Source of the DNA: a virus
Taxonomy: Duplodnaviria > Heunggongvirae > Uroviricota > Caudoviricetes
IMG/VR virus record: IMGVR_UViG_2925877141_000002
DNA length: 33,848 nucleotides
Strand: one strand, 5' to 3'
In this document: piece after piece, positions 3,920-33,848 of the stretch
Layout of the letters: the number at the start of each line of letters is the position of its first letter
Numbering within the stretch: the first letter of the stretch is position 1
Translations under genes and position numbers: made by a program
The notes under the pieces: model-generated
The model's input: only the letters and a program-made list of their open reading frames with translations
What the model was told of the DNA's origin: nothing
The model's database searches: none

Positions 3920-4010
3920 TAGACTGGCCCCCTGAATCTCCAGACAACCAATATCACTTAAATAAGTGATAGTCTTAATACTAGTTTTTAGACTAGTCAT
4001 TGGAGAACAG

Positions 4011-4442
4011 ATGATTGATGTCTTAGGGCCGGAGAAACGCAGACGGCGTACCACACAGGAAAAGATCGCAATTGTTCAGCAGAGCTTTGAACCGGGGATG
4101 ACGGTCTCCCTCGTTGCCCGGCAACATGGTGTAGCAGCCAGCCAGTTATTTCTCTGGCGTAAGCAATACCAGGAAGGAAGTCTTACTGCTGTCGCCGCCG
4201 GAGAACAGGTTGTTCCTGCCTCTGAACTTGCTGCCGCCATGAAGCAGATTAAAGAACTCCAGCGCCTGCTCGGCAAGAAAACGATGGAAAATGAACTCCT
4301 CAAAGAAGCCGTTGAATATGGACGGGCAAAAAAGTGGATAGCGCACGCGCCCTTATTGCCCGGGATGGGGAGTAAGCTTAGTCAGCCGTTGTCTCCGGGT
4401 GTCGCGTGCGCAGTTGCACGTCATTCTCAGACGAACCGATGA
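4011..4442 (+). CDS. insC: IS2 OrfA (InsC) variant with altered, extended C-terminus
   Basis: Starts [14 protein letters not shown] with GGAGAACAG RBS; ends ...PGMGSKLSQ... instead of canonical ...PGDGE because of the 1-bp deletion. Confidence 0.8.
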
Positions 4443-5238
4443 CTGGATGGATGGCCGCCGCAGTCGTCACACTGATGATACGGATGTGCTTCTCCGTATA
4501 CACCATGTTATCGGAGAGCTGCCCACGTATGGTTATCGTCGGGTATGGGCGCTGCTTCGCAGACAGGCAGAACTTGATGGTATGCCTGCGATCAATGCCA
4601 AACGTGTTTACCGGATCATGCGCCAGAATGCGCTGTTGCTTGAGCGAAAACCTGCTGTACCGCCATCGAAACGGGCACATACAGGCAGAGTGGCCGTGAA
4701 AGAAAGCAATCAGCGATGGTGCTCTGACGGGTTCGAGTTCTGCTGTGATAACGGAGAGAGACTGCGTGTCACGTTCGCGCTGGACTGCTGTGATCGTGAG
4801 GCACTGCACTGGGCGGTCACTACCGGCGGCTTCAACAGTGAAACAGTACAGGACGTCATGCTGGGAGCGGTGGAACGCCGCTTCGGCAACGATCTTCCGT
4901 CGTCTCCAGTGGAGTGGCTGACGGATAATGGTTCATGCTACCGGGCTAATGAAACACGCCAGTTCGCCCGGATGTTGGGACTTGAACCGAAGAACACGGC
5001 GGTGCGGAGTCCGGAGAGTAACGGAATAGCAGAGAGCTTCGTGAAAACGATAAAGCGTGACTACATCAGTATCATGCCCAAACCAGACGGGTTAACGGCA
5101 GCAAAGAACCTTGCAGAGGCGTTCGAGCATTATAACGAATGGCATCCGCATAGTGCGCTGGGTTATCGCTCGCCACGGGAATATCTGCGGCAGCGGGCTT
5201 GTAATGGGTTAAGTGATAACAGATGTCTGGAAATATAG
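4399..5238 (+). CDS. insD: IS2 OrfB (InsD) transposase body, DDE domain; no longer reachable by -1 frameshift from OrfA
   Basis: 279-aa ORF identical to the distal InsD of copy B; the frame entered by -1 slippage at the A6G site (4328-4334) hits TAA at about 4371. Confidence 0.75.
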
Positions 5239-5249
5239 GGGCAAATCCA

Positions 5250-5447
5250 GCCAGGTTTATCCTCGCAGACAATAAATTTATAAGCGCAGTCCTGAGCAGC
5301 CGGATAATGTTCCAGGAATTGCCAGTGAAATTTTGCTCGAGCACGGCGTTCGTCGCCAGCTTCAATGGCTGTGGCTACAGCCACAGCGCCTTCTTCCCTT
5401 GTTGCCAGTTCGTCAGGAATAGCGACGCAAATAAAGACTTTACTCAT
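5250..5447 (-). pseudogene. Prophage exonuclease, N-terminal 66 codons separated from the rest of the gene by IS2
   Basis: ORF starting at 5447 (MSKVFICVAIPDE...) reads in frame through 5250; removing IS2 and one TSD copy joins it in frame to 3914..1641, restoring an 823-aa protein. Confidence 0.7.
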
Positions 5448-5732: not shown

Positions 5733-5917
5733 TGTGCACATCCTTTTGGCATCAGACGTAAACGAGCCAGCATTGAAACAATGCATATTTTATTTAATAG
5801 CTCCCGTTCTTGTTTTCTCTTGTTAATGGCATCTTCAGTAAATACAGGGTTACTGATAGTGACACCAATTTCAAAACAACCTTCAGACGTATTAACGTTT
5901 GGTAATAACGTTTTCAT
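5729..5917 (-). CDS. dicB: Cell division inhibitor DicB
   Basis: 62 aa MKTLLPNVNTSEGCFEIGV...MLARLRLMPKGCAQ; GAGGA RBS 7 nt upstream; downstream of the DicF sequence as in the Qin dicB operon. Confidence 0.8.
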   Translation of the reverse strand: MKTLLPNVNTSEGCFEIGVTISNPVFTEDAINKRKQERELLNKICIVSMLARLRLMPKGCAQ

Positions 5918-6086
5918 TATCGCGTCCTCAACAATGAATTTTGTGATGCAGTGCCTGGTGCCTCCAAGTGACGTTAACCAGTTAACAATTAACGTCGGAT
6001 ACAGAGAATCCACCCATAACACTGTTTTTGGTTTTAACTGTTCCGCGTGCGCTTAGCCGCATTCACCGCATCACAAAATTCACTTT

Positions 6087-6403: not shown

Positions 6404-6979
6404 TTAAGGATTCATTAAGCAATGTCGCAACCACCAATAAATCCGCTTAAGAACATGAAAATTGATTACTGGTATAAAGCGCTTACAGTTGTTGGCGCTG
6501 CGTTGTTTGTCTTTAATGGAACGTCTTTTTTTGACAGATATCCCGTTGTTCCATTGGGTTTTTTGTCCTCCGGCATCTTTTTTATTGGTTTGGGGGAGTG
6601 GATTAATCACCCTCTCAAAGTGAGATTTATTGGCCCTGGAGTTTGGACTCGTGGATATAATCGTTCTTCGTGCGCACTCGGTATCATCTTCGACATACTT
6701 GGTTGTTTCCTGATTGTTACAGGAGTCGTCAAGTTCTTCTGATGTAAAACCGCAAATGGGGCACGTAACGGGAATTTTGAAAAGCGTTTCTCCGGGTTCC
6801 AGAACAAAATTTTCTGCGGTCTGATTTTGCTTCTCATATTTGTGCTCCGCGTCATTGTGAGAGCACATTCTTATTCTGAGTGCCTGTTTAAACTCACTGA
6901 AGCTGAGAGCTTCTTCGCCTTCGGCAAGGCCTTCGAAGTATTCTTCGTAAGCCTTTTCCATGATTGTGTCGAAATCCAT
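6404..6979 (-). CDS. YdfB-like protein, extended (191 codons), with CPICGF zinc-ribbon-like motif; distal two thirds may be a shadow ORF
   Basis: Begins MDFDTIMEKAYEEYFEGLAEGEEAL... coupled to the ydfA stop; distal part is K/N/R-rich and exactly antisense to the plus-strand membrane ORF. Confidence 0.4.
   Translation of the reverse strand: MDFDTIMEKAYEEYFEGLAEGEEALSFSEFKQALRIRMCSHNDAEHKYEKQNQTAENFVLEPGETLFKIPVTCPICGFTSEELDDSCNNQETTKYVEDDTECARRTIISTSPNSRANKSHFERVINPLPQTNKKDAGGQKTQWNNGISVKKRRSIKDKQRSANNCKRFIPVINFHVLKRIYWWLRHCLMNP
6422..6742 (+). CDS. Hypothetical small membrane protein (three predicted TM segments), antisense to the dicB operon
   Basis: 106 aa with hydrophobic stretches ALTVVGAALFVF, GFLSSGIFFIGLG, ALGIIFDILGCFLIVTGVV; AAGGA RBS 11 nt upstream of ATG, lying in the 3' arm of a perfect 10-bp hairpin (6383-6392 / 6402-6411). 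Confidence 0.45.
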   Translation: MSQPPINPLKNMKIDYWYKALTVVGAALFVFNGTSFFDRYPVVPLGFLSSGIFFIGLGEWINHPLKVRFIGPGVWTRGYNRSSCALGIIFDILGCFLIVTGVVKFF

Positions 6980-11957: not shown

Positions 11958-12084
11958 GTTTTTATTTTCAACGCGTTTGAAGTTCTGGACGGTGCCGGAA
12001 TAGAATCAAAAATACTTAAGTAGCGCGCAGGGATAAGAGGGATGGTCCCTTAAAGGGGAGAGCTAATTATCCGGAAGGATTCTG

Positions 12085-12336
12085 ATGATGAACATCGAAG
12101 AACTGCGTAAAATTTTTTGTGAAGATGGCCTCTATGCTGTGTGCGTTGAAAATGGAAATCTTGTTAGTCATTACCGCATTATGTGTTTGCGAAAGAATGG
12201 GGCTGCGTTAATTAATTTTGTGGATGGTCGAGTGACAGACGGATTTATCTTGCGCGAAGGTGAGTTTGTCACTTCATTACAGGCACTGAAAGAGATCGGA
12301 ATAAAAGCAGGCTTTTCAGCTTTTGCAGAAGAATAA
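12085..12336 (+). CDS. rem: Rem-like protein
   Basis: 83 aa MMNIEELRKIFCEDGLYAVCVENGNLVSHYRIMCLRKNGAAL...; GGAAGGA RBS; position after hok as in Qin. Confidence 0.6.
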   Translation: MMNIEELRKIFCEDGLYAVCVENGNLVSHYRIMCLRKNGAALINFVDGRVTDGFILREGEFVTSLQALKEIGIKAGFSAFAEE

Positions 12337-12402
12337 ACTCATCTACAATCTTGCGCGGGGCTGAACTCCCGCTGAGTAACACCGTGCCACCGGAGAAAAC
12401 CG

Positions 12403-12681
12403 ATGGCACGCAACGTAAAATATTACAATTCTGATAATTCGCCCGTTCTTGCCTGCACGCACGAGCGGTATTCTCACGCATTCAAGTCTGAATGGTTCCA
12501 GCACCCTCCATGCACTGAAGAGCAGGCTGAATGGATAATTCAGTGTTACCGCAGGCGCGGATACGAGGTTAAGAAAGCTCTTAGTCTCGACTACCGTCAC
12601 TGGATAATCTCAGTCAGATTGCCTTACTCCGAACGCCCACCGCGTCCGTCCCGTACATTCCAGCAACGCATCTGGAGGTAA
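12403..12681 (+). CDS. Hypothetical protein
   Basis: 92-aa ORF with GGAGAAAA RBS; stop abuts the DUF968 gene start. Confidence 0.5.
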   Translation: MARNVKYYNSDNSPVLACTHERYSHAFKSEWFQHPPCTEEQAEWIIQCYRRRGYEVKKALSLDYRHWIISVRLPYSERPPRPSRTFQQRIWR

Positions 12682-12682
12682 C

Positions 12683-13732
12683 GTGCGGGTATTACTTCGA
12701 CCTGTTCTGGTACCGGAACTCGGGCTGGTGGTCGTTAAGCCGGGCCGTGAATCCATGCCGGTATTCCACAATACCCGGGTACTGGTGGAGCCGGAACCGA
12801 AAAGCATGCGTAATCTGCCGTCCGGGGTCGTTCCTGCCGTTCGCCAGCCGCTGGTGGAAGACAAAACATTGCTGCCGTTTTTCAGTAACGCACGGGTAAT
12901 TCGTGCTGCTGGTGGTGCTGGTGCATTGTCTGACTGGCTGTTGCGCCATATTAAATCCTGCCAGTGGCCACACGGCGATTATCATCACAGCGAAACCGTT
13001 ATTCACCGTTATGGTACCGGCGCAATGGTGTTGTGCTGGCACTGCGACAACCAGCTGCGTGACCAGACATCCGAATCACTCGAGCAACTTGCTCATCAAA
13101 ACCTGTCAGCATGGATGATTGACGTCATCGGTCACGCAATAAGCGGTACGCAGGAGCGTGAATTATCTCTGGCTGAATTATCCTGGTGGGCGGTCCGCAA
13201 TCAGGTGGCGGACGCGCTACCGGAAGTGGTATTACGTCGCTCGCTGGGATTACCAGCGGAAAAAAACTGCTCGGTGTACCGCGAAAGCGACATCGTACCG
13301 GGAGAGCAGACCGCCACCAGCATATTGAAACAGCGCACAAAAAATCTTGCACCGTTGCCTCACGCCCACCAGCAACAAAACCCATCACAGGAAAAGACGG
13401 TGGTAAGCATCACCGTTGATCCAGAGTCTCCGGAATCTTTCATGAAGCTGCCTAAACGTCACCGTTGGGTTAAGGAGAAATACACACGCTGGGTTAAGAC
13501 ACAGCCGTGTGCTTGCTGCGGTATGCCAGCCGACGATCCGCATCATCTGATTGGTCACGGGCAGGGCGGAATGGGAACCAAAGCACATGATCTCTTTGTG
13601 TTGCCTTTGTGCAGAAAGCATCACGACGAGTTGCATACGGATACCGTGGCATTTGAAGAGAAGTATGGCTCCCAACTGGAGCTGATTTTTCGATTTATCG
13701 ATCGCGCGCTGGCAATTGGTGTGCTGGCCTAA
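12683..13732 (+). CDS. ydfU: DUF968 protein (YdfU-like) with C-terminal HNH-like Cys/His cluster, in the NinG/Rap position
   Basis: 349 aa; C-terminus [43 protein letters not shown]; directly upstream of Q. Confidence 0.7.
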
Positions 13733-15959: not shown

Positions 15960-16166
15960 CTGTATGCGATATCATCTGAAAGTGATGAGTTCCTGTATGC
16001 AGGATATTTACAATCGTAAAAACTACGCTATGATGCTCATAGTGTCAGTTTTTATAAAAATCCTGTTCACGCTAATAGACTGGCCCCCTGAATCTCCAGA
16101 CAACCAATATCACTTAAATAAGTGATAGTCTTAATACTAGTTTTTAGACTAGTCATTGGAGAACAG

Positions 16167-16532
16167 ATGATTGATGTCTTAGGGCCGGAGAAACGCAGAC
16201 GGCGTACCACACAGGAAAAGATCGCAATTGTTCAGCAGAGCTTTGAACCGGGGATGACGGTCTCCCTCGTTGCCCGGCAACATGGTGTAGCAGCCAGCCA
16301 GTTATTTCTCTGGCGTAAGCAATACCAGGAAGGAAGTCTTACTGCTGTCGCCGCCGGAGAACAGGTTGTTCCTGCCTCTGAACTTGCTGCCGCCATGAAG
16401 CAGATTAAAGAACTCCAGCGCCTGCTCGGCAAGAAAACGATGGAAAATGAACTCCTCAAAGAAGCCGTTGAATATGGACGGGCAAAAAAGTGGATAGCGC
16501 ACGCGCCCTTATTGCCCGGGGATGGGGAGTAA
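16167..16532 (+). CDS. insC: IS2 OrfA (InsC)
   Basis: 121 aa [56 protein letters not shown]... Confidence 0.85.
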
Positions 16533-17395
16533 GCTTAGTCAGCCGTTGTCTCCGGGTGTCGCGTGCGCAGTTGCACGTCATTCTCAGACGAACCGATGAC
16601 TGGATGGATGGCCGCCGCAGTCGTCACACTGATGATACGGATGTGCTTCTCCGTATACACCATGTTATCGGAGAGCTGCCCACGTATGGTTATCGTCGGG
16701 TATGGGCGCTGCTTCGCAGACAGGCAGAACTTGATGGTATGCCTGCGATCAATGCCAAACGTGTTTACCGGATCATGCGCCAGAATGCGCTGTTGCTTGA
16801 GCGAAAACCTGCTGTACCGCCATCGAAACGGGCACATACAGGCAGAGTGGCCGTGAAAGAAAGCAATCAGCGATGGTGCTCTGACGGGTTCGAGTTCTGC
16901 TGTGATAACGGAGAGAGACTGCGTGTCACGTTCGCGCTGGACTGCTGTGATCGTGAGGCACTGCACTGGGCGGTCACTACCGGCGGCTTCAACAGTGAAA
17001 CAGTACAGGACGTCATGCTGGGAGCGGTGGAACGCCGCTTCGGCAACGATCTTCCGTCGTCTCCAGTGGAGTGGCTGACGGATAATGGTTCATGCTACCG
17101 GGCTAATGAAACACGCCAGTTCGCCCGGATGTTGGGACTTGAACCGAAGAACACGGCGGTGCGGAGTCCGGAGAGTAACGGAATAGCAGAGAGCTTCGTG
17201 AAAACGATAAAGCGTGACTACATCAGTATCATGCCCAAACCAGACGGGTTAACGGCAGCAAAGAACCTTGCAGAGGCGTTCGAGCATTATAACGAATGGC
17301 ATCCGCATAGTGCGCTGGGTTATCGCTCGCCACGGGAATATCTGCGGCAGCGGGCTTGTAATGGGTTAAGTGATAACAGATGTCTGGAAATATAG
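16490..17395 (+). CDS. insD: IS2 OrfB (InsD), normally expressed as OrfAB by -1 frameshift
   Basis: 301 aa starting [22 protein letters not shown] (GTG immediately after A6G). Confidence 0.85.
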
Positions 17396-17701
17396 GGGCA
17401 AATCCAGCTAAAGAAAACATTGAGATGCAATTTAATGTTGGTAAACATACCAGCCCCAAACGATTTTATTCAATCTGTTTTTATATGAAGATATTTCAAG
17501 TGAATATTGAGAGTATATAATATTATTATTGCACGCAGCTATTATAATATAACAGATTAGTTTAATGATTTGTTTTTTGTGAGTTAAACACATGGTTTTA
17601 TAGTTGTGATGCAATGAGATTTTCCTTATTGTTGAACTGGCGAATATTGATTTTCCACCTATACTTACCTGGTGTAACCCCAATGATATCAGGTGGATAA
17701 T

Positions 17702-22998: not shown

Positions 22999-23196
22999 AT
23001 GGATCGAGAGTTAAAAAATCTGACGCTGAATATCAGTCAACTGGCGGCATTGTCAGGTGTACATCGCCAGACTGCTGCGGCAAGGCTGCAAAATCTACCC
23101 GTTGCAGGGGGGCATGAAAGCAACCTCAAGCTTTATCGGGTGGTTGATATTGTGTCGGCATTTCTGGCATTACCACCGCCGGTTCCGGACCGGTGA
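22999..23196 (+). pseudogene. Terminase small subunit (Nu1-like) N-terminal fragment, 65 codons
   Basis: N-terminal HTH resembles Nu1 (QLAALSGVHRQTAAARLQNLPVAGGHESNLKLY); full-length Nu1-family proteins are about 180 aa; no terminase large subunit gene follows. Confidence 0.5.
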
Positions 23197-23453
23197 TGCC
23201 GTGGATTGACCCTGTTAAGGAGGCTGAGGCCTGGAAAATTCAGATTCGTGGTGGAGCGGCGACAGAATCAGACTGGGTACGTGCAGGTGGTCGTAATCCG
23301 GATGATGTCAAACGTCGGCGCAAGGCCGAAATTGATGAAAACCGCAAGCTGGATCTGGTATTTGATACCGATCCGGCCAGTGATAAAGGAGGCAGCAGTG
23401 CCGCAACGAAACGACAGGAGCCGCAGCACACCGACGACCAGTCCGAAGAATAA
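23193..23453 (+). pseudogene. Probable C-terminal remnant of a portal protein gene
   Basis: 86-aa charged ORF directly upstream of the head protease gene, where portal normally lies; assignment by position. Confidence 0.35.
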
Positions 23454-25835: not shown

Positions 25836-26103
25836 TCCCTTTTCCCGGCTGGCAGCGCGTATGGATGCTATCACGGTCAGAAAGATGGGAAAGACAGCCT
25901 CGATTAATGATGTCGATATGACTGTGATCCCGGGAGAAACACTGGCAGAGCTGAATGCTCTGTCCGGACCTGCGGTCTCTCTGGTGGTGTTTTCTTCGGG
26001 ATACCGCCCACGGCGCGGGGATCGCGTTGTTTATGACGGACAACAATGGACGGTCACACGGCATGAACGTTTTAACGGTAAGCCAATGATCTTTATTGAG
26101 TAA
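25828..26103 (+). CDS. Head-tail joining/connector-like protein
   Basis: 91 aa, overlaps the preceding gene by 8 nt; assignment by position and size. Confidence 0.45.
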   Translation: MSDPFSRLAARMDAITVRKMGKTASINDVDMTVIPGETLAELNALSGPAVSLVVFSSGYRPRRGDRVVYDGQQWTVTRHERFNGKPMIFIE

Positions 26104-26114
26104 AGAGGTGTGGG

Positions 26115-26525
26115 ATGAAGGGGCTTGAGAATGCCATCCGTAATCTGAACAGCCTTGATACCCGTATGGTGCCACAGGCCAGCGCATGGGCGATAAACCG
26201 TGTGGCACAGAAAGCGGTCTCGGTCGCCACCCGGCAGGTTGCCGGGAATACCGTTGCGGGAGATAACCAGGTGGCGGGTGTGGCTTACAGCCGTGTGTCG
26301 ACTTTCTCCGGGGATTATCTCCGCGTAACTGACAACAAGGGGAAAACGCACGATGTGCTGACCGGAAGTGATGACGGTCGCCACAGCAACATGTCTCTGG
26401 CGTGGGGGGCTGGCGTGCAGTTTAACCCGACCGAATCCGTGGCCATTGATGTCGCTTATGAAGGCTCCGGCAGTGGCGACTGGCGCACTGACGGTTTCAT
26501 CGTGGGTGTCGGTTATAAGTTCTGA
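26115..26525 (+). CDS. lom: Chimeric ORF: N-terminal about 50 aa of a tail-region gene fused to the C-terminal about 85 aa of Lom outer-membrane protein
   Basis: C-terminus SLAWGAGVQFNPTESVAIDVAYEGSGSGDWRTDGFIVGVGYKF closely matches the lambda Lom C-terminus as recalled; N-terminus MKGLENAIRNLNSLDTRMVPQ... is unrelated and has no signal peptide. Confidence 0.7.
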   Translation: MKGLENAIRNLNSLDTRMVPQASAWAINRVAQKAVSVATRQVAGNTVAGDNQVAGVAYSRVSTFSGDYLRVTDNKGKTHDVLTGSDDGRHSNMSLAWGAGVQFNPTESVAIDVAYEGSGSGDWRTDGFIVGVGYKF

Positions 26526-26551
26526 TTAGCCAGGTAACACAGTGTTATGAC

Positions 26552-26579
26552 AGCCCGCCGGTTCAGGCGGGCTTTTTTG
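26552..26579 (+). terminator. Rho-independent terminator between lom and stf
   Basis: AGCCCGCC-GGTTCA-GGCGGGCT followed by TTTTTT. Confidence 0.75.
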
Positions 26580-26589
26580 TGGGGTGAAT

Positions 26590-29500
26590 ATGGCAGTAAA
26601 GATTTCAGGTGTACTGAAAGACGGTGCAGGTAAACCGGTACAGAACTGCACAATCCAGCTGAAAGCAAAACGTAACAGCACCACGGTGGTGGCGAACACG
26701 GTGGCCTCAGAAAATCCGGATGAAGCCGGGCGTTACAGCATGGACGTTGAGTACGGTCAGTACAGCGTTATTCTGTTGGTGGAAGGCTTCCCGCCATCGC
26801 ATGCCGGGACCATCACCGTGTATGAAGACTCACAACCGGGTACGCTGAATGATTTTCTCGGTGCCATGACGGAGGATGATGTCCGTCCGGAGGCACTGCG
26901 CCGCTTTGAACTGATGGTGGAAGAGGTGGCGCGTAACGCGTCCGCAGTGGCGCAGAACACAGCAGCCGCGAAGAAGTCAGCCAGCGATGCCAGCACATCA
27001 GCCCGTGAGGCGGCAACCCATGCGACTGATGCTGCAGGCTCAGCACGTGCAGCCAGCACGTCAGCCGGACAGGCCGCTTCGTCGGCTCAGTCAGCGTCTT
27101 CCAGCGCAGGAACGGCATCAGCAAAGGCTACTGAAGCATCAAAAAGTGCTGCCGCTGCAGAGTCTTCAAAAAGCGCGGCAGCCACCAGTGCCGGTGCAGC
27201 GAAAACGTCAGAAACGAATGCCGCAGCATCACAAAAATCTGCGGCCACTTCTGCATCCACCGCGACCACGAAAGCGTCAGAAGCTGCCACCTCAGCCCGG
27301 GATGCGTCGGCTTCAAAAGTGGCGGCAAAATCATCAGAAACGAGCGCAGCCTCGAGCGCCGGCAGTGCAGCTTCCTCGGCAACGGCGGCAGGAAATTCCG
27401 CGAAGGCCGCAAAAACGTCTGAGACGAATGCGGATAACAGCGCACAGGCGGCAGCAGACTCACAAACTGCATCGGCAAATTCCGCGACAGCAGCCAAAAA
27501 ATCAGAAACCAACGCGAAAAATAGTGAGTCAGCAGCAAAGGTCAGCGAAACCAACGCTAAAGCGTCAGAGAACAAGGCGAAAGAATATCTCGACAAGGTC
27601 GGGGGACTCGTCAGCCCGATGACGCAATACGATTGGCCTGTTGTTACTGCTAGTGAGTCTCTTTACATCAAGATCGCGAAACTTTCCGATCCTGGAACCA
27701 GCAGAAGTCATGTAACGCTAATGGTTACTAACGCTGGTAACTACGGCTCCCCTTACGGAAACATTGACTTTATCGAGATCTCGGCGCGCGGTCTGCCTTC
27801 TTTGCTTAGTGCGGATAATGTTTCTCGTCATCTGAGTATACGCCGCTTAGGGTCAACCGGGCTGACCGATAACAACCAGATGCGTTACGGCCTGGTTAAA
27901 GGTGACGGCTTTATTGAGGTTTGGGCATTCCAGGGTGCGTTTATTAACGACGCAAAGGTTGCGGTGCTGGCGCAGACAACACTAAACACAGAATTATACA
28001 TTCCAGACGGATTTGTTAAGCAAACCGCCGCGCCTTCTGGATATATTGAAGGCAACGTTGTAAGGATTTACGACCAGGTAAACAAGCCGACTAAAGCAGA
28101 TTTGGGTCTTTCTAATGCTATGCTTACAGGCGCTTTCGGTCTTGGCGGTAGCGGGATATCAACAAACGGCAAGATGAGCGATGTAGAGATCTTAAAAGCT
28201 CTGCGTGACAAAGGTGGTCATTTCTGGCGCGGTGATAAGCCGACCGGAAGCACGGCGACCATTTATAGCCACGGTTCTGGTATATTCTCGCGGTGCGGCG
28301 ATACGTGGTCAGCGATCAATATCGACTACTCAACCGCGAAGATTAAGATCTATGCCGGCAACGATGCCCGGCTTAACAACGGGACTTTTAGCGTCAATGA
28401 GCTATACGGCTCGGCAAACAAGCCGTCGAAATCGGATGTTGGACTTGGCAACGTAACGAACGATGCGCAGGTAAAAAAAACCGGCGATACAATGACCGGT
28501 GACTTGACAATCAAAAAAGGTACACCGTCAGTCTTCCTGCGGGCAGACAGTGGAGTCACCGCTTTGCGGTTTTATACTGGCGATAACACAGAGCGCGGCA
28601 TAATCTATGCTGGTCCTAACACTGATTCGCTTGGCGAAGTTCGCATCAGGGCAAAGACAGCAGGGGGGACATCAGGAGGGGATCTTGTTGTTCGTCACGA
28701 CGGGAGGGTTGAAGTCCGTGATCTCACAGTAGCGTATAAAATTAAAAGCAGAACGATTGAGATTGCAAATACCGACACTGACTCATCGGCAACTACGCTA
28801 AGCATCTATGGAGTACAGCACACGCCGTTGGTTTTAACGCGTTCTGGTTCTTCTGAAAATGTGTCCATTGGGTTTAAGTTAGACAATGTGAACCCAAAGT
28901 ATCTTGGAATTGATACTAATGGGGATCTGGCTTTTGGTGAGAGTCCTGATCAGAAACAAAACAGCAAATTGATCACGCAAGCGAAACTCGACAAGGGATT
29001 AACGATTGGTGGTCAACTGGCTTTCAAAGGTACGACAGCGTTTTCAGCCGTTGCTACGTTCAGTGCCGGGATAGCAGGAGCCATCGAGCCGGAAAACATT
29101 GACGGCCAGACGGTTAATCTTAACAACCTGACCATCATCAAGTCAGATGCCGGGGCAGTTAAATACTATATTTGTCCATCCTCTGCAGGTGGTGCAAATA
29201 TCACCAACAAGCCTGACGGCGTAACAGGTAACTTTTTGCTCCGTGTTGAATCGACTCGTAAGGTTAGGGATTCAGATTATGCGAACATGCAAACGCTGAT
29301 TAACAGCGACACAAAACGTATATACGTTCGCTTTGTTGTTAATGGAAACTGGACAGCGTGGAGTCAGGTTGTTGTTTCCGGATGGAATCAGGATGTAACC
29401 GTCAGGTCGTTAACCTCGACGACTCCATCAAAATTAGGTGGCGGGCGGATTGATGTGCTTGGAAGTACGTCAGATTATGGCAGCATGAATTGTACCGTTC

Positions 29501-30369
29501 GTGGTGTTGATAGCACTGGAACCAATTCGGCGTGGTCGGTAGGCACATCAGAAAGCACAGGCAAAATGTTGTTCCTGAAAAACCACAGAAGCAGCGCTCA
29601 AGTGCTGTTAAATGGCGATGATGGAGCGGTTCAACTACTAAGTGGCACTGTTAACGGTGCTACAGCGCAGGCGCTAACCATCAACAAAGATGAGGTTAAC
29701 TCAACTGCCGATTTAGTAATTAGAAAACAAACAGGGACTGGCAATCGTTTTGCTTTACTTAATTCAGGTAATTCAGAACTACCAGTTAGTATCAGGGTGT
29801 GGGGTTCCAGTACTCGACAAAACGTTTTTGAGGTTGGCACGTCTGCTGCGTATCTGTTTTATGCGCAAAAAACAACAGACGGGCAAAACCTTACTGTAAA
29901 CGGAAGTGTTAACTGCACCACACTGAATCAGTCATCAGACCGCAGACTGAAAGAAAATATCGAGATTATCGATAACGCGACTGACGCAATCCGCAAAATT
30001 AATGGATACACGTACACGCTCAAGGAGAATGGGGCACATTGCGCCGGGGTTATAGCACAGGAAGTTGAAGAGGCCATCCCGGAGGCCGTTGGTTCATTCA
30101 TCCATTACGGTGAAGAGTTGCAAGGCCCGACCGTTGACGGCAACGAGCTACGCGAAGAAACGCGCTATCTTAATGTTGACTACGCCGCCGTGACGGGTTT
30201 ACTTGTTCAGGTCGCCCGTGAAACAGATGATCGCGTTACCGCGCTGGAAGAGGAAAACACAACGCTACGTCAAAATCTGGCAACAGCAGGCACCCGGATC
30301 AGCACTCTGGAAAATCAGGTAAGCGAACTGGTTGCACTTGTCCGGCAGTTAACAGGAAGCGAACATTGA
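26590..30369 (+). CDS. stf: Side tail fibre protein (lambda Stf-like N-terminus, Ala/Ser-rich repeats, C-terminal S74-type self-cleaving chaperone domain)
   Basis: N-terminus MAVKISGVLKDGAGKPVQNCTIQLKAKRNSTTV... matches lambda Stf as recalled; C-terminal SDRRLKENIEIID...YTYTLKENG...GVIAQEVEE motif typical of the intramolecular chaperone domain. Confidence 0.9.
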   Translation: MAVKISGVLKDGAGKPVQNCTIQLKAKRNSTTVVANTVASENPDEAGRYSMDVEYGQYSVILLVEGFPPSHAGTITVYEDSQPGTLNDFLGAMTEDDVRPEALRRFELMVEEVARNASAVAQNTAAAKKSASDASTSAREAATHATDAAGSARAASTSAGQAASSAQSASSSAGTASAKATEASKSAAAAESSKSAAATSAGAAKTSETNAAASQKSAATSASTATTKASEAATSARDASASKVAAKSSETSAASSAGSAASSATAAGNSAKAAKTSETNADNSAQAAADSQTASANSATAAKKSETNAKNSESAAKVSETNAKASENKAKEYLDKVGGLVSPMTQYDWPVVTASESLYIKIAKLSDPGTSRSHVTLMVTNAGNYGSPYGNIDFIEISARGLPSLLSADNVSRHLSIRRLGSTGLTDNNQMRYGLVKGDGFIEVWAFQGAFINDAKVAVLAQTTLNTELYIPDGFVKQTAAPSGYIEGNVVRIYDQVNKPTKADLGLSNAMLTGAFGLGGSGISTNGKMSDVEILKALRDKGGHFWRGDKPTGSTATIYSHGSGIFSRCGDTWSAINIDYSTAKIKIYAGNDARLNNGTFSVNELYGSANKPSKSDVGLGNVTNDAQVKKTGDTMTGDLTIKKGTPSVFLRADSGVTALRFYTGDNTERGIIYAGPNTDSLGEVRIRAKTAGGTSGGDLVVRHDGRVEVRDLTVAYKIKSRTIEIANTDTDSSATTLSIYGVQHTPLVLTRSGSSENVSIGFKLDNVNPKYLGIDTNGDLAFGESPDQKQNSKLITQAKLDKGLTIGGQLAFKGTTAFSAVATFSAGIAGAIEPENIDGQTVNLNNLTIIKSDAGAVKYYICPSSAGGANITNKPDGVTGNFLLRVESTRKVRDSDYANMQTLINSDTKRIYVRFVVNGNWTAWSQVVVSGWNQDVTVRSLTSTTPSKLGGGRIDVLGSTSDYGSMNCTVRGVDSTGTNSAWSVGTSESTGKMLFLKNHRSSAQVLLNGDDGAVQLLSGTVNGATAQALTINKDEVNSTADLVIRKQTGTGNRFALLNSGNSELPVSIRVWGSSTRQNVFEVGTSAAYLFYAQKTTDGQNLTVNGSVNCTTLNQSSDRRLKENIEIIDNATDAIRKINGYTYTLKENGAHCAGVIAQEVEEAIPEAVGSFIHYGEELQGPTVDGNELREETRYLNVDYAAVTGLLVQVARETDDRVTALEEENTTLRQNLATAGTRISTLENQVSELVALVRQLTGSEH

Positions 30370-30543
30370 TATCCTTCAAGCTCTGAAGGAGGCTGTTCCC
30401 GGTACGTTCAGACTGTTGTTGAGCTGGAGATCGCAACGGAGGAAGAAAACTCGTTGTTGGAAGCCTGGAAGAAGTATCGGGTGTTGCTGAACCGTGTTGA
30501 TACGTCAACTGCACAGGATATTGAATGGCCAGCACTGCCGTAG
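30370..30543 (+). pseudogene. Tail fibre assembly protein (Tfa) C-terminal remnant, in frame directly after the stf stop
   Basis: Encodes ...[40 protein letters not shown], the conserved Tfa C-terminus; no start codon. Confidence 0.55.
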
Positions 30544-30640
30544 GGTAAAACATATAAATTCTATAATTAGATGTATCTTTCCATTTACGGCAAGGAAGGG
30601 GGCTTGGAAGACGTAAAGCATCTCACACCGAGATTATTTT

Positions 30641-31231
30641 TTATATGTCAGGTGTCTGAAGTTTTGCTTTGGCTCTTAAAATGGTTTGCCGCGAGGTTTT
30701 GAATTCCCGGGCAATGGCACTTATACTTACACCTGACTTAATTCGTTCGAATACCACCTGTTTCTGTTCTTCATTTAACACAGGTGGTCGACCAAAACGT
30801 TTCCCTGCGCCGCGGGCTCTTACTATCCCGGAATGAGTGCGTTCAAGTAAAAGGTCTCGTTCAAATTCAGCGACTGCTGAAATTACGTGCATCATCATTT
30901 TTCCTGTTGGACTGGTCAGGTCAATGCCCCCCAATGCTAAGCAATGCACTCTGATACCTGTTTCGGTCAGTTGTTCCACTGTTTTCCTGATATCCATTGC
31001 ATTACAACCAAGGCGATCCAGTTTTGTCACAATCAATTGATCACCACATTTCAGGCGAGCAAGCAACCGGTTAAAACCAGGACGCTCACTGGTTGCTGCT
31101 GAGCCGCTAATGTGTTCTTCGATTATTTGCTGAGGTTTGATTTTAAAACCTGCACTTTCGATTTCCCGGCGTTGATTTTCGGTGGTCTGATCCAGCGTTG
31201 ATATCCGACAGTAAGCAAAAATTCGAGACAT
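30641..31231 (-). CDS. pin: Serine recombinase DNA invertase Pin (Gin/Hin family)
   Basis: 196 aa [20 protein letters not shown]...; catalytic Ser in the N-terminal motif; C-terminal HTH. Confidence 0.9.
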
Positions 31232-31547
31232 AGTGAGACTCTATACGAAATTGGTGTTCATATCATAATGCATCTCAGAAAATAATTTTGATTATTTTTG
31301 TGCATATTTGTATGTACACGTTCGAAAATAAACGAATGCGTATGCAACCCCGTAACTTTGGTGAGACCTAAAATCGATTTTGTGAAAAATGGCTTTAACT
31401 CGGTTTGTTTTTCGAGTTCCGGGCGGACTCAAGGAAGAAGAATAGTGTTGCGTGTTATTTTAACCAGATTTCAAGTTGTTTGGTCGTGGAAAAGTGGAGC
31501 AAAATGTTGTTAAAGTGGGAAAATGATAAAAAAGTAAGTTTATTATA

Positions 31548-31781
31548 TTACATTTTACCATTTAAATTTTGGTTGTCTTTAAGAACTGATATCGCTGTTT
31601 GTAATAATTCTTTGTTATCCAGCCATGATTTTTTCTTTATGTTTCCTTCAATGTAATCAAGCAATGTTCTGGTATTGATAGGTCTTCCCTGTTTTGCTAC
31701 TTCCACTACAGCATCCCCTAGGATAATTCTTACTTCAGGAAGCTGCGCAGGGAACCACTTTAGGGTGTCTTTTGATTTCAT
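31548..31781 (-). CDS. ydfK: YdfK/YnaE-like protein
   Basis: 77 aa MKSKDTLKWFPAQLPEVRIILGDAVVEVAKQGRPINTRTLLDYIEGNIKK...; AAGGA RBS; adjacent to pin as in Qin/Rac. Confidence 0.65.
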   Translation of the reverse strand: MKSKDTLKWFPAQLPEVRIILGDAVVEVAKQGRPINTRTLLDYIEGNIKKKSWLDNKELLQTAISVLKDNQNLNGKM

Positions 31782-32564
31782 GAAGATATTCCTTAAAATA
31801 TTATTGATTTTCATTGCGATATTGTATGTCTGATTCAGGATATGTTGACTTATACATCGGTTTTGTCTGGGTTATTGGATATGCCAATCCCTAATTTTAT
31901 TAGGGCATGACTAAAAATGCTGAATATGATAAGGAGAGAAGTGATTATCAGTATGCTGTTCATATAGCCTCGAATTAGTAATGTGTTATATATGATATAG
32001 TTGACAATTTTATCTTGGGTGTTCTTAAAGTTCGTAGATAAACATTGTCGTTTCAGGTATACAGGAATGCTAACAGGTGGCGGCAAAAATCAGGCGGTTT
32101 ATGGCGCAATCTGAAGTGGCAACTGCAAACTATCTTATGCAGAGACTCTACACGGATTGGGTTTAAAAGTATACATAGATAACAGTTTTTATCTGAAGAA
32201 GAAAAATATCAAGGTGATATAGCCTATATGCCTTTGATGTGGAGGAATGAATGTGATGGGAGTGATGTATCTGAATAGTTGAAAAACCGCAGACACACCT
32301 TATGCAAGAACGTGCTGCGGTTGGCTGGTAAATTTTTCGATAGTGCGAGTATTGAATGATTTCCAGCCGTTATTGATTTTACGCGTAAATCCATGAAAAA
32401 ACTACTTATCTGTTGGGGAGTTTTTTGGGGCATATATGGGACAGAAATAGGCCCCAGATAGACACTGAGATCGAACTTAGGATGCTTTTAAAAAAATGCA
32501 ACTATCTGAAAAAACCTAGAAAACGCCAAGGAAACCACAGGATGGGAAAAAACACCTGTGAATT

Positions 32565-33848
32565 ATGGATTTCCAGTTATATTCGCTCGGCGCAGCGTTA
32601 GTGTTTCATGAAATATTTTTTCCTGAATCATCAACGGCAATGGCGTTAATTCTGGCAATGGGAACCTACGGTGCAGGTTATGTGGCGCGTATTGTCGGAG
32701 CATTTATTTTCGGCAAAATGGGCGACAGAATAGGGCGTAAAAAAGTGCTCTTTATTACCATCACCATGATGGGGATCTGTACCACCTTAATTGGTGTGTT
32801 ACCGACCTATGCACAGATTGGTGTTTTTGCCCCCATCTTGCTGGTGACGCTGCGTATTATTCAGGGATTGGGTGCAGGTGCGGAAATTTCCGGTGCCGGT
32901 ACGATGCTGGCGGAATATGCGCCAAAAGGTAAGCGCGGAATTATCTCCTCATTTGTGGCTATGGGAACTAACTGCGGAACTTTAAGCGCAACGGCAATCT
33001 GGGCCTTTATGTTCTTCATTCTCAGTAAAGAGGAACTGCTGGCGTGGGGATGGCGTATACCGTTCCTGGCGAGCGTTGTCGTGATGGTCTTTGCTATCTG
33101 GTTGCGTATGAATCTGAAAGAAAGCCCGGTTTTTGAGAAGGTTAACGACAGCAACCAACCGACAGCAAAACCTGCACCTGCTGGTAGCATGTTCCAGAGC
33201 AAATCCTTCTGGCTGGCAACAGGGCTGCGTTTTGGTCAGGCGGGTAACTCAGGTTTAATTCAGACTTTCCTTGCGGGCTATTTAGTGCAGACGTTATTGT
33301 TTAACAAAGCAATTCCAACATATGCATTGATGATCAGTTCGATTCTCGGCTTTATGACCATTCCGTTCCTTGGTTGGTTATCCGATAAAATTGGTCGCCG
33401 GATCCCGTATATTATTATGAATACCTCCGCGATTGTGCTGGCATGGCCAATGCTTTCTATCATCGTAGATAAAAGCTATGCCCCGAGCACCATTATGGTT
33501 GCACTGATTGTGATTCATAACTGTGCGGTGCTGGGATTATTTGCTCTGGAAAATATTACCATGGCAGAAATGTTCGGCTGTAAAAACCGCTTTACCCGGA
33601 TGGCTATTTCTAAAGAAATTGGTGGTCTTATCGCTTCCGGTTTTGGTCCTATCCTGGCGGGTATTTTCTGCACCATGACGGAATCCTGGTATCCGATCGC
33701 CATTATGATCATGGCATATTCAGTGATTGGTTTAATCTCTGCGCTGAAAATGCCAGAAGTGAAAGACCGTGATTTAAGTGCGCTGGAAGACGCCGCGGAA
33801 GATCAACCGCGTGTTGTAAGAGCTGCGCAACCTTCCAGAAGTCTGTAA
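32565..33848 (+). CDS. ydfJ: MFS transporter YdfJ (host gene at prophage right boundary; likely lacks the first TM helix)
   Basis: 427 aa; MFS motif GKMGDRIGRKK about 50 aa from the start; ProP-like; weak RBS. Confidence 0.8.
   Translation: MDFQLYSLGAALVFHEIFFPESSTAMALILAMGTYGAGYVARIVGAFIFGKMGDRIGRKKVLFITITMMGICTTLIGVLPTYAQIGVFAPILLVTLRIIQGLGAGAEISGAGTMLAEYAPKGKRGIISSFVAMGTNCGTLSATAIWAFMFFILSKEELLAWGWRIPFLASVVVMVFAIWLRMNLKESPVFEKVNDSNQPTAKPAPAGSMFQSKSFWLATGLRFGQAGNSGLIQTFLAGYLVQTLLFNKAIPTYALMISSILGFMTIPFLGWLSDKIGRRIPYIIMNTSAIVLAWPMLSIIVDKSYAPSTIMVALIVIHNCAVLGLFALENITMAEMFGCKNRFTRMAISKEIGGLIASGFGPILAGIFCTMTESWYPIAIMIMAYSVIGLISALKMPEVKDRDLSALEDAAEDQPRVVRAAQPSRSL

Follow-up and report, generated by a model that had tools for sequence, protein, structure and literature searches.

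The window, that is, the whole stretch of 33,848 nucleotides that was analysed, is on its sequence a defective lambdoid prophage of the Qin type, integrated in the E. coli gene ydfJ, and the region described here is its right end. E. coli chromosomes match it at 100% or 99.98% identity. It carries rspA/rspB at the left end and pinQ-ydfK-ynfT-ydfJ' at the right end, with the insertion in ydfJ lying between rspB and a ydfJ' that has no N-terminus, and it contains the Qin cargo genes dicB, ydfD, hokD, rem, cspI, gnsB, pinQ, ydfK and ynfT. The locus is ordinary and already known: a Qin right end with an S74-type stf, a tfa' stub and PinQ. Its features are as follows:

26584-30369, + strand: stf, lambdoid side tail fibre gene, 1261 aa from GTG 26584 (open reading frame, Pfam, similarity to Ayreon)
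29935-30369, + strand: putative intramolecular chaperone/autoprotease domain (Peptidase_S74), Ser1118-His1261 (Pfam, S16 gp37 match, motif)
30370-30405, + strand: junction filler, 36 nt, from the stf stop to the recognisable tfa remnant (full-length tfa genes match from 30407 only)
30406-30543, + strand: tfa' pseudogene remnant, last 45 codons and TAG of a lambda-type Tfa (Pfam Caudo_TAP; PGAP partial)
30544-30640: spacer separating the stop codons of the converging tfa' and pinQ, 97 nt, equal in length to that of K-12 Qin
30641-31231, - strand: pinQ, complete gene for a small serine recombinase, 196 aa (Pfam Resolvase and HTH_7; RefSeq pinQ)
31232-31547: AT-rich intergenic region upstream of pinQ, shared with K-12 Qin
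31548-33848: prophage right end and attachment junction (annotation of the 99.98%-identical EcPNK006 region; same order in K-12 Qin)
31548-31781, - strand: ydfK
31850-31963, - strand: ynfT
32565-33848, + strand: ydfJ', truncated host gene

K-12 Qin (stfQ-tfaQ-pinQ-ydfK-ynfT, in ydfJ) has the same integration site and the same gene order and orientation at its right end, and is 98.7% identical to the window from 30421 to the window end. However, stfQ is truncated and tfaQ is full in K-12, whereas the window has a full-length 1261-aa S74-type stf and only the 3' stub of tfa. The window also retains more of the prophage than K-12 Qin (int, xis and head genes); it shows deletions of its own and contains IS2 twice. 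Because it lacks all tail genes (a Z'-'lom fusion is present) and part of the terminase/portal region, Stf cannot be used in a virion at present. Why stf has kept an intact frame of 1261 codons in a tail-less prophage could be explained only by a recent deletion or by retention of the gene as a reservoir for recombination.

The side tail fibre and its C-terminal chaperone domain

The predicted Stf consists of a conserved N-terminal anchor (phage_tail_N at aa 3-136, E=1e-71, Pfam), an Ala/Ser-rich shaft, a variable receptor-binding part with weak T4 gp34-like similarity, and a C-terminal S74 chaperone; PGAP places the start at ATG 26590. The original prediction, made from the letters of the window, that Stf ends in an S74-type chaperone domain was borne out by a profile search, in which Peptidase_S74 (PF13884) matched aa 1118-1169 with E=2.6e-16 and 60.1 bits against a cut-off of 22, and by a phmmer alignment of the C-terminus with the solved structure of S16 gp37 (6f45, E=5.6e-9) that includes the 'SSDRRxK' motif. 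The corresponding S1118-D-R-R-L-K1123 motif, whose SDRRLK core is also conserved in Ayreon, mEp460, PhiR70_1 and mEp044, begins at nt 29935; the domain start proposed earlier, 29932, is one codon before it. The predicted Ser1118-Lys1123 dyad has the same spacing as the Ser1264/Lys1269 dyad of T5 pb1 (PMC4690869) and is followed by a C-terminal coiled coil and then by the TGA at 30367-30369, the S74 domain being the extreme C-terminus of Stf. Stf ends where the mEp044 fibre ends, and a terminator follows the mEp044 fibre gene.

The Pfam family, an S-x4-K dyad at the domain start, the coiled coil and the extreme C-terminal position in a trimeric fibre are all common to Stf and to K1F endosialidase, T5 pb1 and S16 gp37. 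By contrast, the receptor-binding domain upstream differs from that of Stf, and cleavage in Stf is predicted. These likenesses in sequence support the view that Stf ends in an intramolecular chaperone of the self-cleaving S74 type. If it works like those of endosialidase and T5 pb1, from which latter work the autocleavage mechanism comes (PMC4690869), it would bring about folding of the trimer and afterwards cleave itself off at a predicted scissile bond between Ser1117 and Ser1118 (nt 29934/29935). An Stf of this kind would need no Tfa. The functional lambdoid phages Ayreon, mEp460 and PhiR70_1, which have the same fibre, carry no tfa gene, and a separate chaperone is thus dispensable, as had been proposed. 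PADLOC and NCBIfam yielded no specific family for Stf, PinQ or YdfK.

In EcPNK006, the closest genome, PGAP splits the stf annotation. A broken stf was considered there and rejected, as the open reading frame is intact with one substitution.

The junction filler and the tfa remnant

The interval 30370-30543 is open in the stf frame, with 57 sense codons and a TAG, and has no start codon. The original prediction had described it as 58 start-less, in-frame codons of the Tfa C-terminus; the open frame and the missing start stand, but there are 57 sense codons, and only the last 45 are Tfa. The Caudo_TAP match is limited to stub residues 13-57 and to profile positions 86-130 of 131 (E=1.9e-19, Pfam). 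Since this match starts at residue 13 and DNA similarity starts at 30407, the first 12 codons (30370-30405) are not recognisably Tfa. With the N-terminus missing and no ATG or GTG start, the piece is a remnant and not a member gene of the family, and in the PGAP annotation 30418-30543 is likewise a tail fibre assembly protein marked partial, without its N-terminus. Overall, the evidence supports tfa' as the dead remnant of a module exchange.

The filler was found solely downstream of S74-type stf cassettes. We considered whether it is frameshifted tfa: its frame +1 peptide resembles 'LMQVASEHIAP' of TfaQ, with a 2-nt indel at about 30395 in the alignment of filler and tfaQ. This is plausible and has no Pfam or blastn support, leaving the origin of the filler uncertain. 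A palindrome at the junction, CCTTCA-N5-TGAAGG, was rejected as a Hin-family site, as such sites are built on a 2-bp core with AAACC/GGTTT arms. No terminator-like hairpin turned up when the tfa'-pinQ spacer (30544-30640) was scanned.

Distribution and proposed history of the junction

The junction, consisting of the S74 end, the TGA, the 36-nt filler and the tfa 3' end, was found in 802 of 5426 complete E. coli genomes, 143 of which have pinQ-ydfK-ydfJ downstream of it. It is also present in Ayreon (MF807953), mEp460 (JQ182728) and PhiR70_1 (PV340577), all propagated as phages, which share with the window the S74 domain, the stop codon, an identical or nearly identical filler and the tfa' stub to about 30530, as well as an N-terminal fibre anchor as in lambda Stf. 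Unlike the window, these phages are functional, have tail genes, lack pin and carry other b-region genes beyond about 30530. Their receptor-binding parts differ in how closely they follow that of the window: the side tail fibre of Ayreon has 86% DNA identity over 26272-30530, mEp460 matches partially, and PhiR70_1 is unrelated upstream of 29926. Because its similarity is confined to 29926-30530, PhiR70_1 has a different receptor-binding part joined to the same S74 and tfa' unit. A second copy of the junction lies in the potB-site prophage of EcPNK006, which is 95.9% identical over 27619-30530 and has no pin. The occurrence of the junction in pin-less phages, in this pin-less prophage and in 802 of the 5426 genomes indicates an older feature of the cassette and not a local origin.

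The tfa' stub is thus part of the S74 cassette, for which it probably acts as the homology arm on the right. It is very likely that the region as a whole is the right end of Qin, with an S74 cassette that brought along an inherited tfa' scar and with pinQ as a constant backbone gene that has no segment in cis. In one older event in a lambdoid phage, an S74-ending fibre would have taken the place of the stf 3' part and of the initial two thirds of tfa, leaving the filler and the 45-codon tfa 3' end as a non-coding scar that now travels with the cassette. The scar and the conserved 5' end of stf would provide the homology by which cassettes are exchanged between infecting lambdoid phages and resident prophages through homologous recombination. 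The window is homologous to the cassettes of Ayreon, mEp460 and the potB prophage as far as 30529-30530, and identity to the K-12 Qin backbone begins at 30421; the right-hand crossover would lie inside the scar, at approximately 30421-30490, with the Qin backbone beyond. pinQ belongs to the Qin/Rac backbone as a constant accessory gene and converges on whichever fibre module lies upstream.

Lambda is known to recombine with Rac and Qin within stf and tfa homology (PMC3945230). The reverse swap is shown by mEp460_ev081, a derivative of mEp460, in which a stf-tfa-pin block now precedes genes for integrase, excisionase and exonuclease, the arrangement seen at the end of Rac. The junction carries little weight beyond annotation. 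It illustrates that a pseudogene stub right after a gene can be a hitch-hiker in a mobile cassette and not the sign of a local event. It is also a concrete example of conserved 5' (stf N-terminus) and 3' (S74 and tfa') arms that frame a variable receptor-binding cassette, which is relevant to host-range evolution and to fibre engineering in lambdoid phages.

A variant in which the stub is kept as a homology handle for shuttling S74 cassettes and the intact stf serves as a host-range reservoir, or in which PinQ has an unknown target in trans in an e14-less strain, appears unlikely. Still less probable is a history along the lines proposed originally, in which the exchange took place at the window locus itself: stf-tfa would have been replaced, and with it an invertible segment, so that pin was orphaned and the 3' end of the old tfa stayed in place. 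The 98.7% identity to the K-12 Qin backbone from 30421 rightward fits with a tfaQ-type 3' end that was partly kept and a cassette that came by recombination; however, the S74-tfa' junction (30367-30420) is identical in the pin-less phages and in another prophage, besides being present in the 802 genomes, and pin has no invertible segment even beside intact stf-tfa (see below). Of that proposal, the stub as the remnant of a fibre module exchange stands, while the window as the place of the exchange does not.

PinQ and the search for an invertible segment

As predicted, a complete pin gene lies on the opposite strand. PinQ has Resolvase (PF00239, E=3.6e-36) and C-terminal HTH_7 (PF02796, E=3.8e-11) domains in Pfam, and its predicted catalytic Ser11 aligns with Ser9 of PinE, which together with the C-terminal HTH makes it a small serine recombinase. 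It is 98.5% identical to K-12 PinQ, differing at three of 196 residues, and 38% identical to PinE, from which its recognition helix differs. The upstream region, 31232-31547, shows hexamers resembling a promoter on its minus strand, and no other part of the window is a repeat partner of it.

Serine recombinases beside fibre and tfa genes are also found in the Gin, Cin, Hin and PinE systems (Mu G, P1 C, e14 P). These differ from the window in having inverted stf'/tfa' copies and 26-bp crossover sites, and their recombinase reads away from the segment, whereas pin of the window converges on the fibre genes. The window has neither two inverted sites of about 26 bp nor inverted fibre or tfa copies: a single stf and a single tfa' lie on the + strand, with no oppositely oriented copies or reverse-strand open reading frames. 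The expectation that no invertible segment is present held up in the repeat searches. Between 30370-30640 and the lom'/stf side, the best inverted 26-nt match was 18/26, which is chance level (shuffles 17.9 +/- 0.8; 66 of 100 reached 18). Inverted repeats involving the pin side and the pin upstream region, as well as those in 26000-32600 and in the whole window, were likewise at chance level, as judged by dinucleotide shuffles. A half-site scan, using e14 sites read from sequence and hix/gix half-sites, found no pix/gix/hix-like site in the window, the best score being 17/24 versus 21-22/24 for the real e14 pix sites that served as positive control. A pix core with three mismatches gave one chance-level match, at 6585, and none near stf or pin.

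That PinQ has cis sites of an unrecognised type in or near the prophage, at which local DNA is rearranged, seems highly improbable. Its 38% identity to PinE and its divergent recognition helix mean that a pix/gix scan could miss such sites, since the natural site of PinQ may be unlike pix and invisible to a pix-based consensus; moreover, the gene is intact and 98-99% conserved across prophages and phages. Against this, no above-chance inverted repeats link the pin flanks to the fibre region or occur elsewhere in the window, the best 20 genome matches to the window are all colinear apart from one with an IS2 insertion, and in a published BLAST survey inversions were confined to e14, with none in Qin or Rac (PMC12529663). 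In 2H10, Turner, Tritos and PhiR68_2, Pin copies of 98.5-99.5% identity adjoin either an intact stf-tfa or a different fibre module, and no inverted repeats flank them. No cis-invertible segment or flanking inverted repeats were found in the PinQ carriers 2H10, Tritos and Turner, none was found in Erwinia phage LS-2018a, whose Pin is 60.8% identical, and none lies beside PinQ or PinR where stf-tfa is intact (K-12 Qin, 2H10, Turner, PhiR68_2). Second tfa copies in Turner and PhiR68_2 were considered as inverted partners and rejected; these copies run in direct orientation and are leftovers within a b-region of the ybcY/appY/ompT type, as at the DLP12 end.

Because PinQ and PinR lack a cis segment even beside intact stf-tfa, the fibre exchange did not orphan pin, contrary to the original prediction, and to stand as an 'orphan invertase' beside tail fibre genes is the rule for PinQ/PinR. 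A 2025 paper (PMC12529663) reports that K-12 PinQ acts in trans to invert the P segment of e14. This is the sole activity reported for it, and PinQ may be active in the strain of the window too. In EcPNK006, e14 is absent from the icd site, and the sole published substrate of PinQ is probably missing there, which poses a modest question for the trans-inversion model as to the role of PinQ in such strains.

Coding potential of the stub

The in-frame arrangement of stf and tfa' has no evident meaning; the chance of an in-frame junction is one in three a priori and all copies derive from one shared junction, which makes the frame weakly informative. Readthrough of the stf TGA is unlikely and would be of little consequence anyway. 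A functional stub, reached by TGA readthrough or by its own translation, e.g., from TTG codons at about 30451 behind GGAGGA at about 30436, is barely credible: the 57-codon frame is open in every copy examined, is kept in the 802 genomes and has mostly synonymous changes in its Tfa-like part, but the one recent junction common to all copies means that the conserved frame says little. Codons 1-12 bear no likeness to Tfa, and the two changes that mEp460 has in them both alter the amino acid when read in the stf frame. The stop sits in a TGA-T context, which terminates efficiently in E. coli through fourth-base effects, the extension would lie on the domain predicted to be cleaved off, and there is no ATG or GTG start. 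Compared with Ayreon, tfa' has about six synonymous and two non-synonymous changes (counted by eye); this synonymous excess could mean coding constraint, and is accounted for just as well by gene conversion from tfa alleles that are functional.

Short, start-less tfa 3' fragments are also present in the b-region at other lambdoid prophage ends, e.g., one of 186 nt in PhiR68_2 and one of 174 nt in the potB prophage, and tfaX and tfaD of DLP12 in K-12 are comparable remnants. The window tfa' differs from these in its fixed place in the cassette, directly against the stop of an S74-type stf.

The tail-fibre module lies in a longer version of Qin

The window is a longer version of Qin, the cryptic prophage in ydfJ of E. 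coli K-12. Against E. coli chromosomes the region is 99.8-100% identical; over the whole window, the closest of these genomes, EcPNK006 (NZ_CP071436.1), shows 99.98% identity, save one extra IS2. Its genes run in the order rspA/rspB, int, xis, dicB, hokD, rem, Q, lysis genes, cspI, gnsB, a few head genes, stf, tfa' (a tfa 3' remnant), pinQ, ydfK, ynfT and ydfJ', and the RefSeq annotation downstream of the fibre likewise reads pinQ, ydfK, ynfT and truncated ydfJ. K-12 Qin has the same order (stfQ-tfaQ-pinQ-ydfK-ynfT) and an equal gap of 97 nt separating the tfa stop from the pin stop, the two genes being convergent. The features named in the original prediction are real and correctly placed, and all belong to known types, within a prophage that is itself known; the evidence does not support the proposed orphaning of pin by a local exchange. 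The two complete genes concerned are:

26584-30369, + strand: stf ORF, product of 1261 aa
30641-31231, - strand: pinQ, complete, encoding a 196-aa serine recombinase (Resolvase and HTH_7), as predicted

Stf ends with its chaperone domain

Stf begins with a lambda-type 'prophage tail fibre N-terminal' domain (aa 3-136) and, as had been proposed, ends with an S74-type chaperone domain (Peptidase_S74, aa 1118-1169, Pfam E=2.6e-16). The domain starts with S1118-D-R-R-L-K1123 at nt 29935, the same Ser-x4-Lys arrangement as Ser1264/Lys1269 of T5 pb1, where the Ser is scissile and folding of the trimer precedes release of the chaperone (PMC4690869). The C-terminal 389 aa also match the solved structure of a phage S16 fibre that carries such a chaperone (6f45, E=5.6e-9), in an alignment that covers 'SSDRRxK'. 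The homologous domain of mEp044, a non-lambdoid phage, stops at the same point, with a terminator after it; the stf stop is thus where the domain naturally ends, and the junction lies right at the stop codon.

Before and into the S74 domain, aa ~1062-1145 (29770-30020) weakly resemble gp34, the T4 proximal long tail fibre protein (4uxe, E=3e-4; 5nxf, E=2e-3), a likeness consistent with a mosaic fibre ancestry. The shaft contains a long low-complexity Ala/Ser/Thr-rich repeat region (aa ~130-345, ~26970-27620) that accounts for long spurious ORFs, both in other frames and antisense to stf. In EcPNK006, PGAP cuts stf into a 'partial' N-terminal pseudogene (26590-27567) and a 'tail fiber domain-containing protein' (29566-30369); this split is an annotation artefact, the 1261-codon ORF being whole there with V769M as its sole difference.

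The tfa stub belongs to the fibre cassette

After the stf TGA (30367-30369), the same frame stays open until a TAG at 30541-30543. It had been described as 58 codons of Tfa; the open in-frame stretch is there, and only its last 45 codons are Tfa-like. Residues 13-57 match positions 86-130 of the 131 in the Caudo_TAP (lambda Tfa) profile (Pfam, E=1.9e-19), the first 12 codons are not Tfa, and similarity to the full-length tfa of lambda and its relatives begins at 30407 and no earlier. The K-12 Qin identity (98.7%) begins no earlier than 30421. The 36 nt between the stf stop and the Tfa-like codons (30370-30405, the filler) occur behind no fibres but those of the S74 type.

In Ayreon and mEp460, both functional lambdoid phages, the S74 end, TGA, filler and tfa stub are the same as in the window; their homology to it ends at 30530 and 30529, respectively, and neither has a pin or a tfa gene. 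In PhiR70_1, an unrelated receptor-binding region joins the same S74 and stub unit at about 29926. A second lambdoid prophage of EcPNK006, by potB (NZ_CP071436.1 2615001-2665000; 25454-29430 of that region), also has an S74-type stf with a tfa stub, 95.9% identical to window 27619-30530; a methyltransferase gene follows the stub, a second tfa remnant lies farther along, and pin is not present in this prophage. Overall, the junction was found in 802 of 5426 complete E. coli genomes (261-nt probe spanning the junction, coverage at least 80%), followed by pinQ-ydfK-ydfJ in 143. Because the same junction recurs in all these settings, the suggestion that an exchange at this locus left the old tfa 3' end behind is not supported, and by sequence comparison the stub is part of the S74 cassette, not of the window locus. 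Most simply, a single old replacement in a lambdoid phage would have covered the 3' part of stf and about 145 tfa codons, and the new cassette would have spread afterwards.

Termination of translation at a TGA followed by T is efficient in E. coli, owing to fourth-base effects. There is no reason to expect functional readthrough of the stf stop, given this context, the non-Tfa codons, the 2-nt indel near 30395 that the tfaQ alignment to the stub region requires, and the two substitutions of mEp460 in the first 12 codons, both non-synonymous in the stf frame; furthermore, any extension would be on the domain that is predicted to be cleaved off. Differences in the Tfa-like part are mostly synonymous, a bias that conversion from functional tfa alleles accounts for equally well. 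The agreement in frame between stf and the stub had a prior of one in three, and comes to every copy with the one shared junction.

PinQ lacks crossover sites beside intact fibre genes as well

The window PinQ differs from that of K-12 by 3 residues. It shares only 38% identity with PinE, from which its recognition helix differs. No crossover sites were found in the window, in agreement with the original prediction that no invertible segment is evident: neither 26000-32600 nor the window as a whole had inverted repeats beyond chance (best 26-mer inverted match 18/26; shuffles 17.9 +/- 0.8), and in a half-site scan the best score in the window was 17/24, far from the fibre, compared with 21-22/24 for the real e14 pix sites. 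One 19-nt inverted match (84%; 5854-5872 / 31247-31265) pairs the promoter region of pinQ with a site 25 kb off, inside or beside the first IS2 copy, and another 19-nt inverted pair (95%; 5935-5953 / 6064-6082, 110 nt apart) lies near that site; the count of such pairs in the window equals the chance expectation.

PinQ/PinR copies of 98.5-99.5% identity occupy the same convergent position in K-12 and in phages 2H10, Turner, Tritos and PhiR68_2, beside either an intact stf-tfa pair or another fibre module, and flanking inverted repeats are likewise absent there. The absence of crossover sites is thus not due to a fibre swap, which removes the ground for regarding pin as orphaned by one. PinQ is reported to act in trans, inverting the P segment (1797 bp) of e14, and is explicitly stated not to invert adjacent DNA; a BLAST survey in the same paper found inversions in e14 only (Kirigo et al., NAR 2025; PMC12529663). 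In EcPNK006, iraM adjoins icd (12033-13709 of the potB-prophage region), so that e14 is absent from its usual site and the published PinQ target is probably missing in the window's background.

Proposed route of cassette movement, and prophage decay

The cassette would move by recombination between a left arm in the conserved 5' part of stf and a right arm in the S74 and tfa' sequence. Experiments have shown lambda recombining with Rac and Qin where their stf and tfa sequences are homologous, one such stretch, in tfa, being 95% identical (De Paepe et al.; PMC3945230). In the window, cassette-type sequence switches to Qin-type sequence inside the stub, at about 30421-30490. The mirror image of this event is seen in mEp460_ev081, a database derivative of mEp460 in which the S74 fibre is replaced by a full stf-tfa-pin block, followed by integrase, excisionase and exonuclease genes as at the Rac end.

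At present, the window's element cannot build its Stf into a particle. The ORF at 26115-26525 (+), which RefSeq labels plainly as an Ail/Lom family protein, is an in-frame fusion of the first 53 residues of Z, a minor tail protein, to residues 87-199 of Lom, an outer-membrane protein; the deletion that this implies took out every tail gene, Z through J, as well as the 5' end of lom. Terminase and portal are also truncated: at 22999-23453, a DUF1441 gene without its C-terminus, read by position as the small terminase subunit, abuts a portal gene without its N-terminus. This marks a second internal deletion, among the packaging genes. That the stf frame is intact may mean that the decay is recent, or that stf serves as a donor to infecting phages. 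Two IS2 copies lie in direct orientation 12.16 kb apart; the second (16076-17408) is the one missing from EcPNK006, and the first (3920-5252) interrupts a recE-like exonuclease gene.
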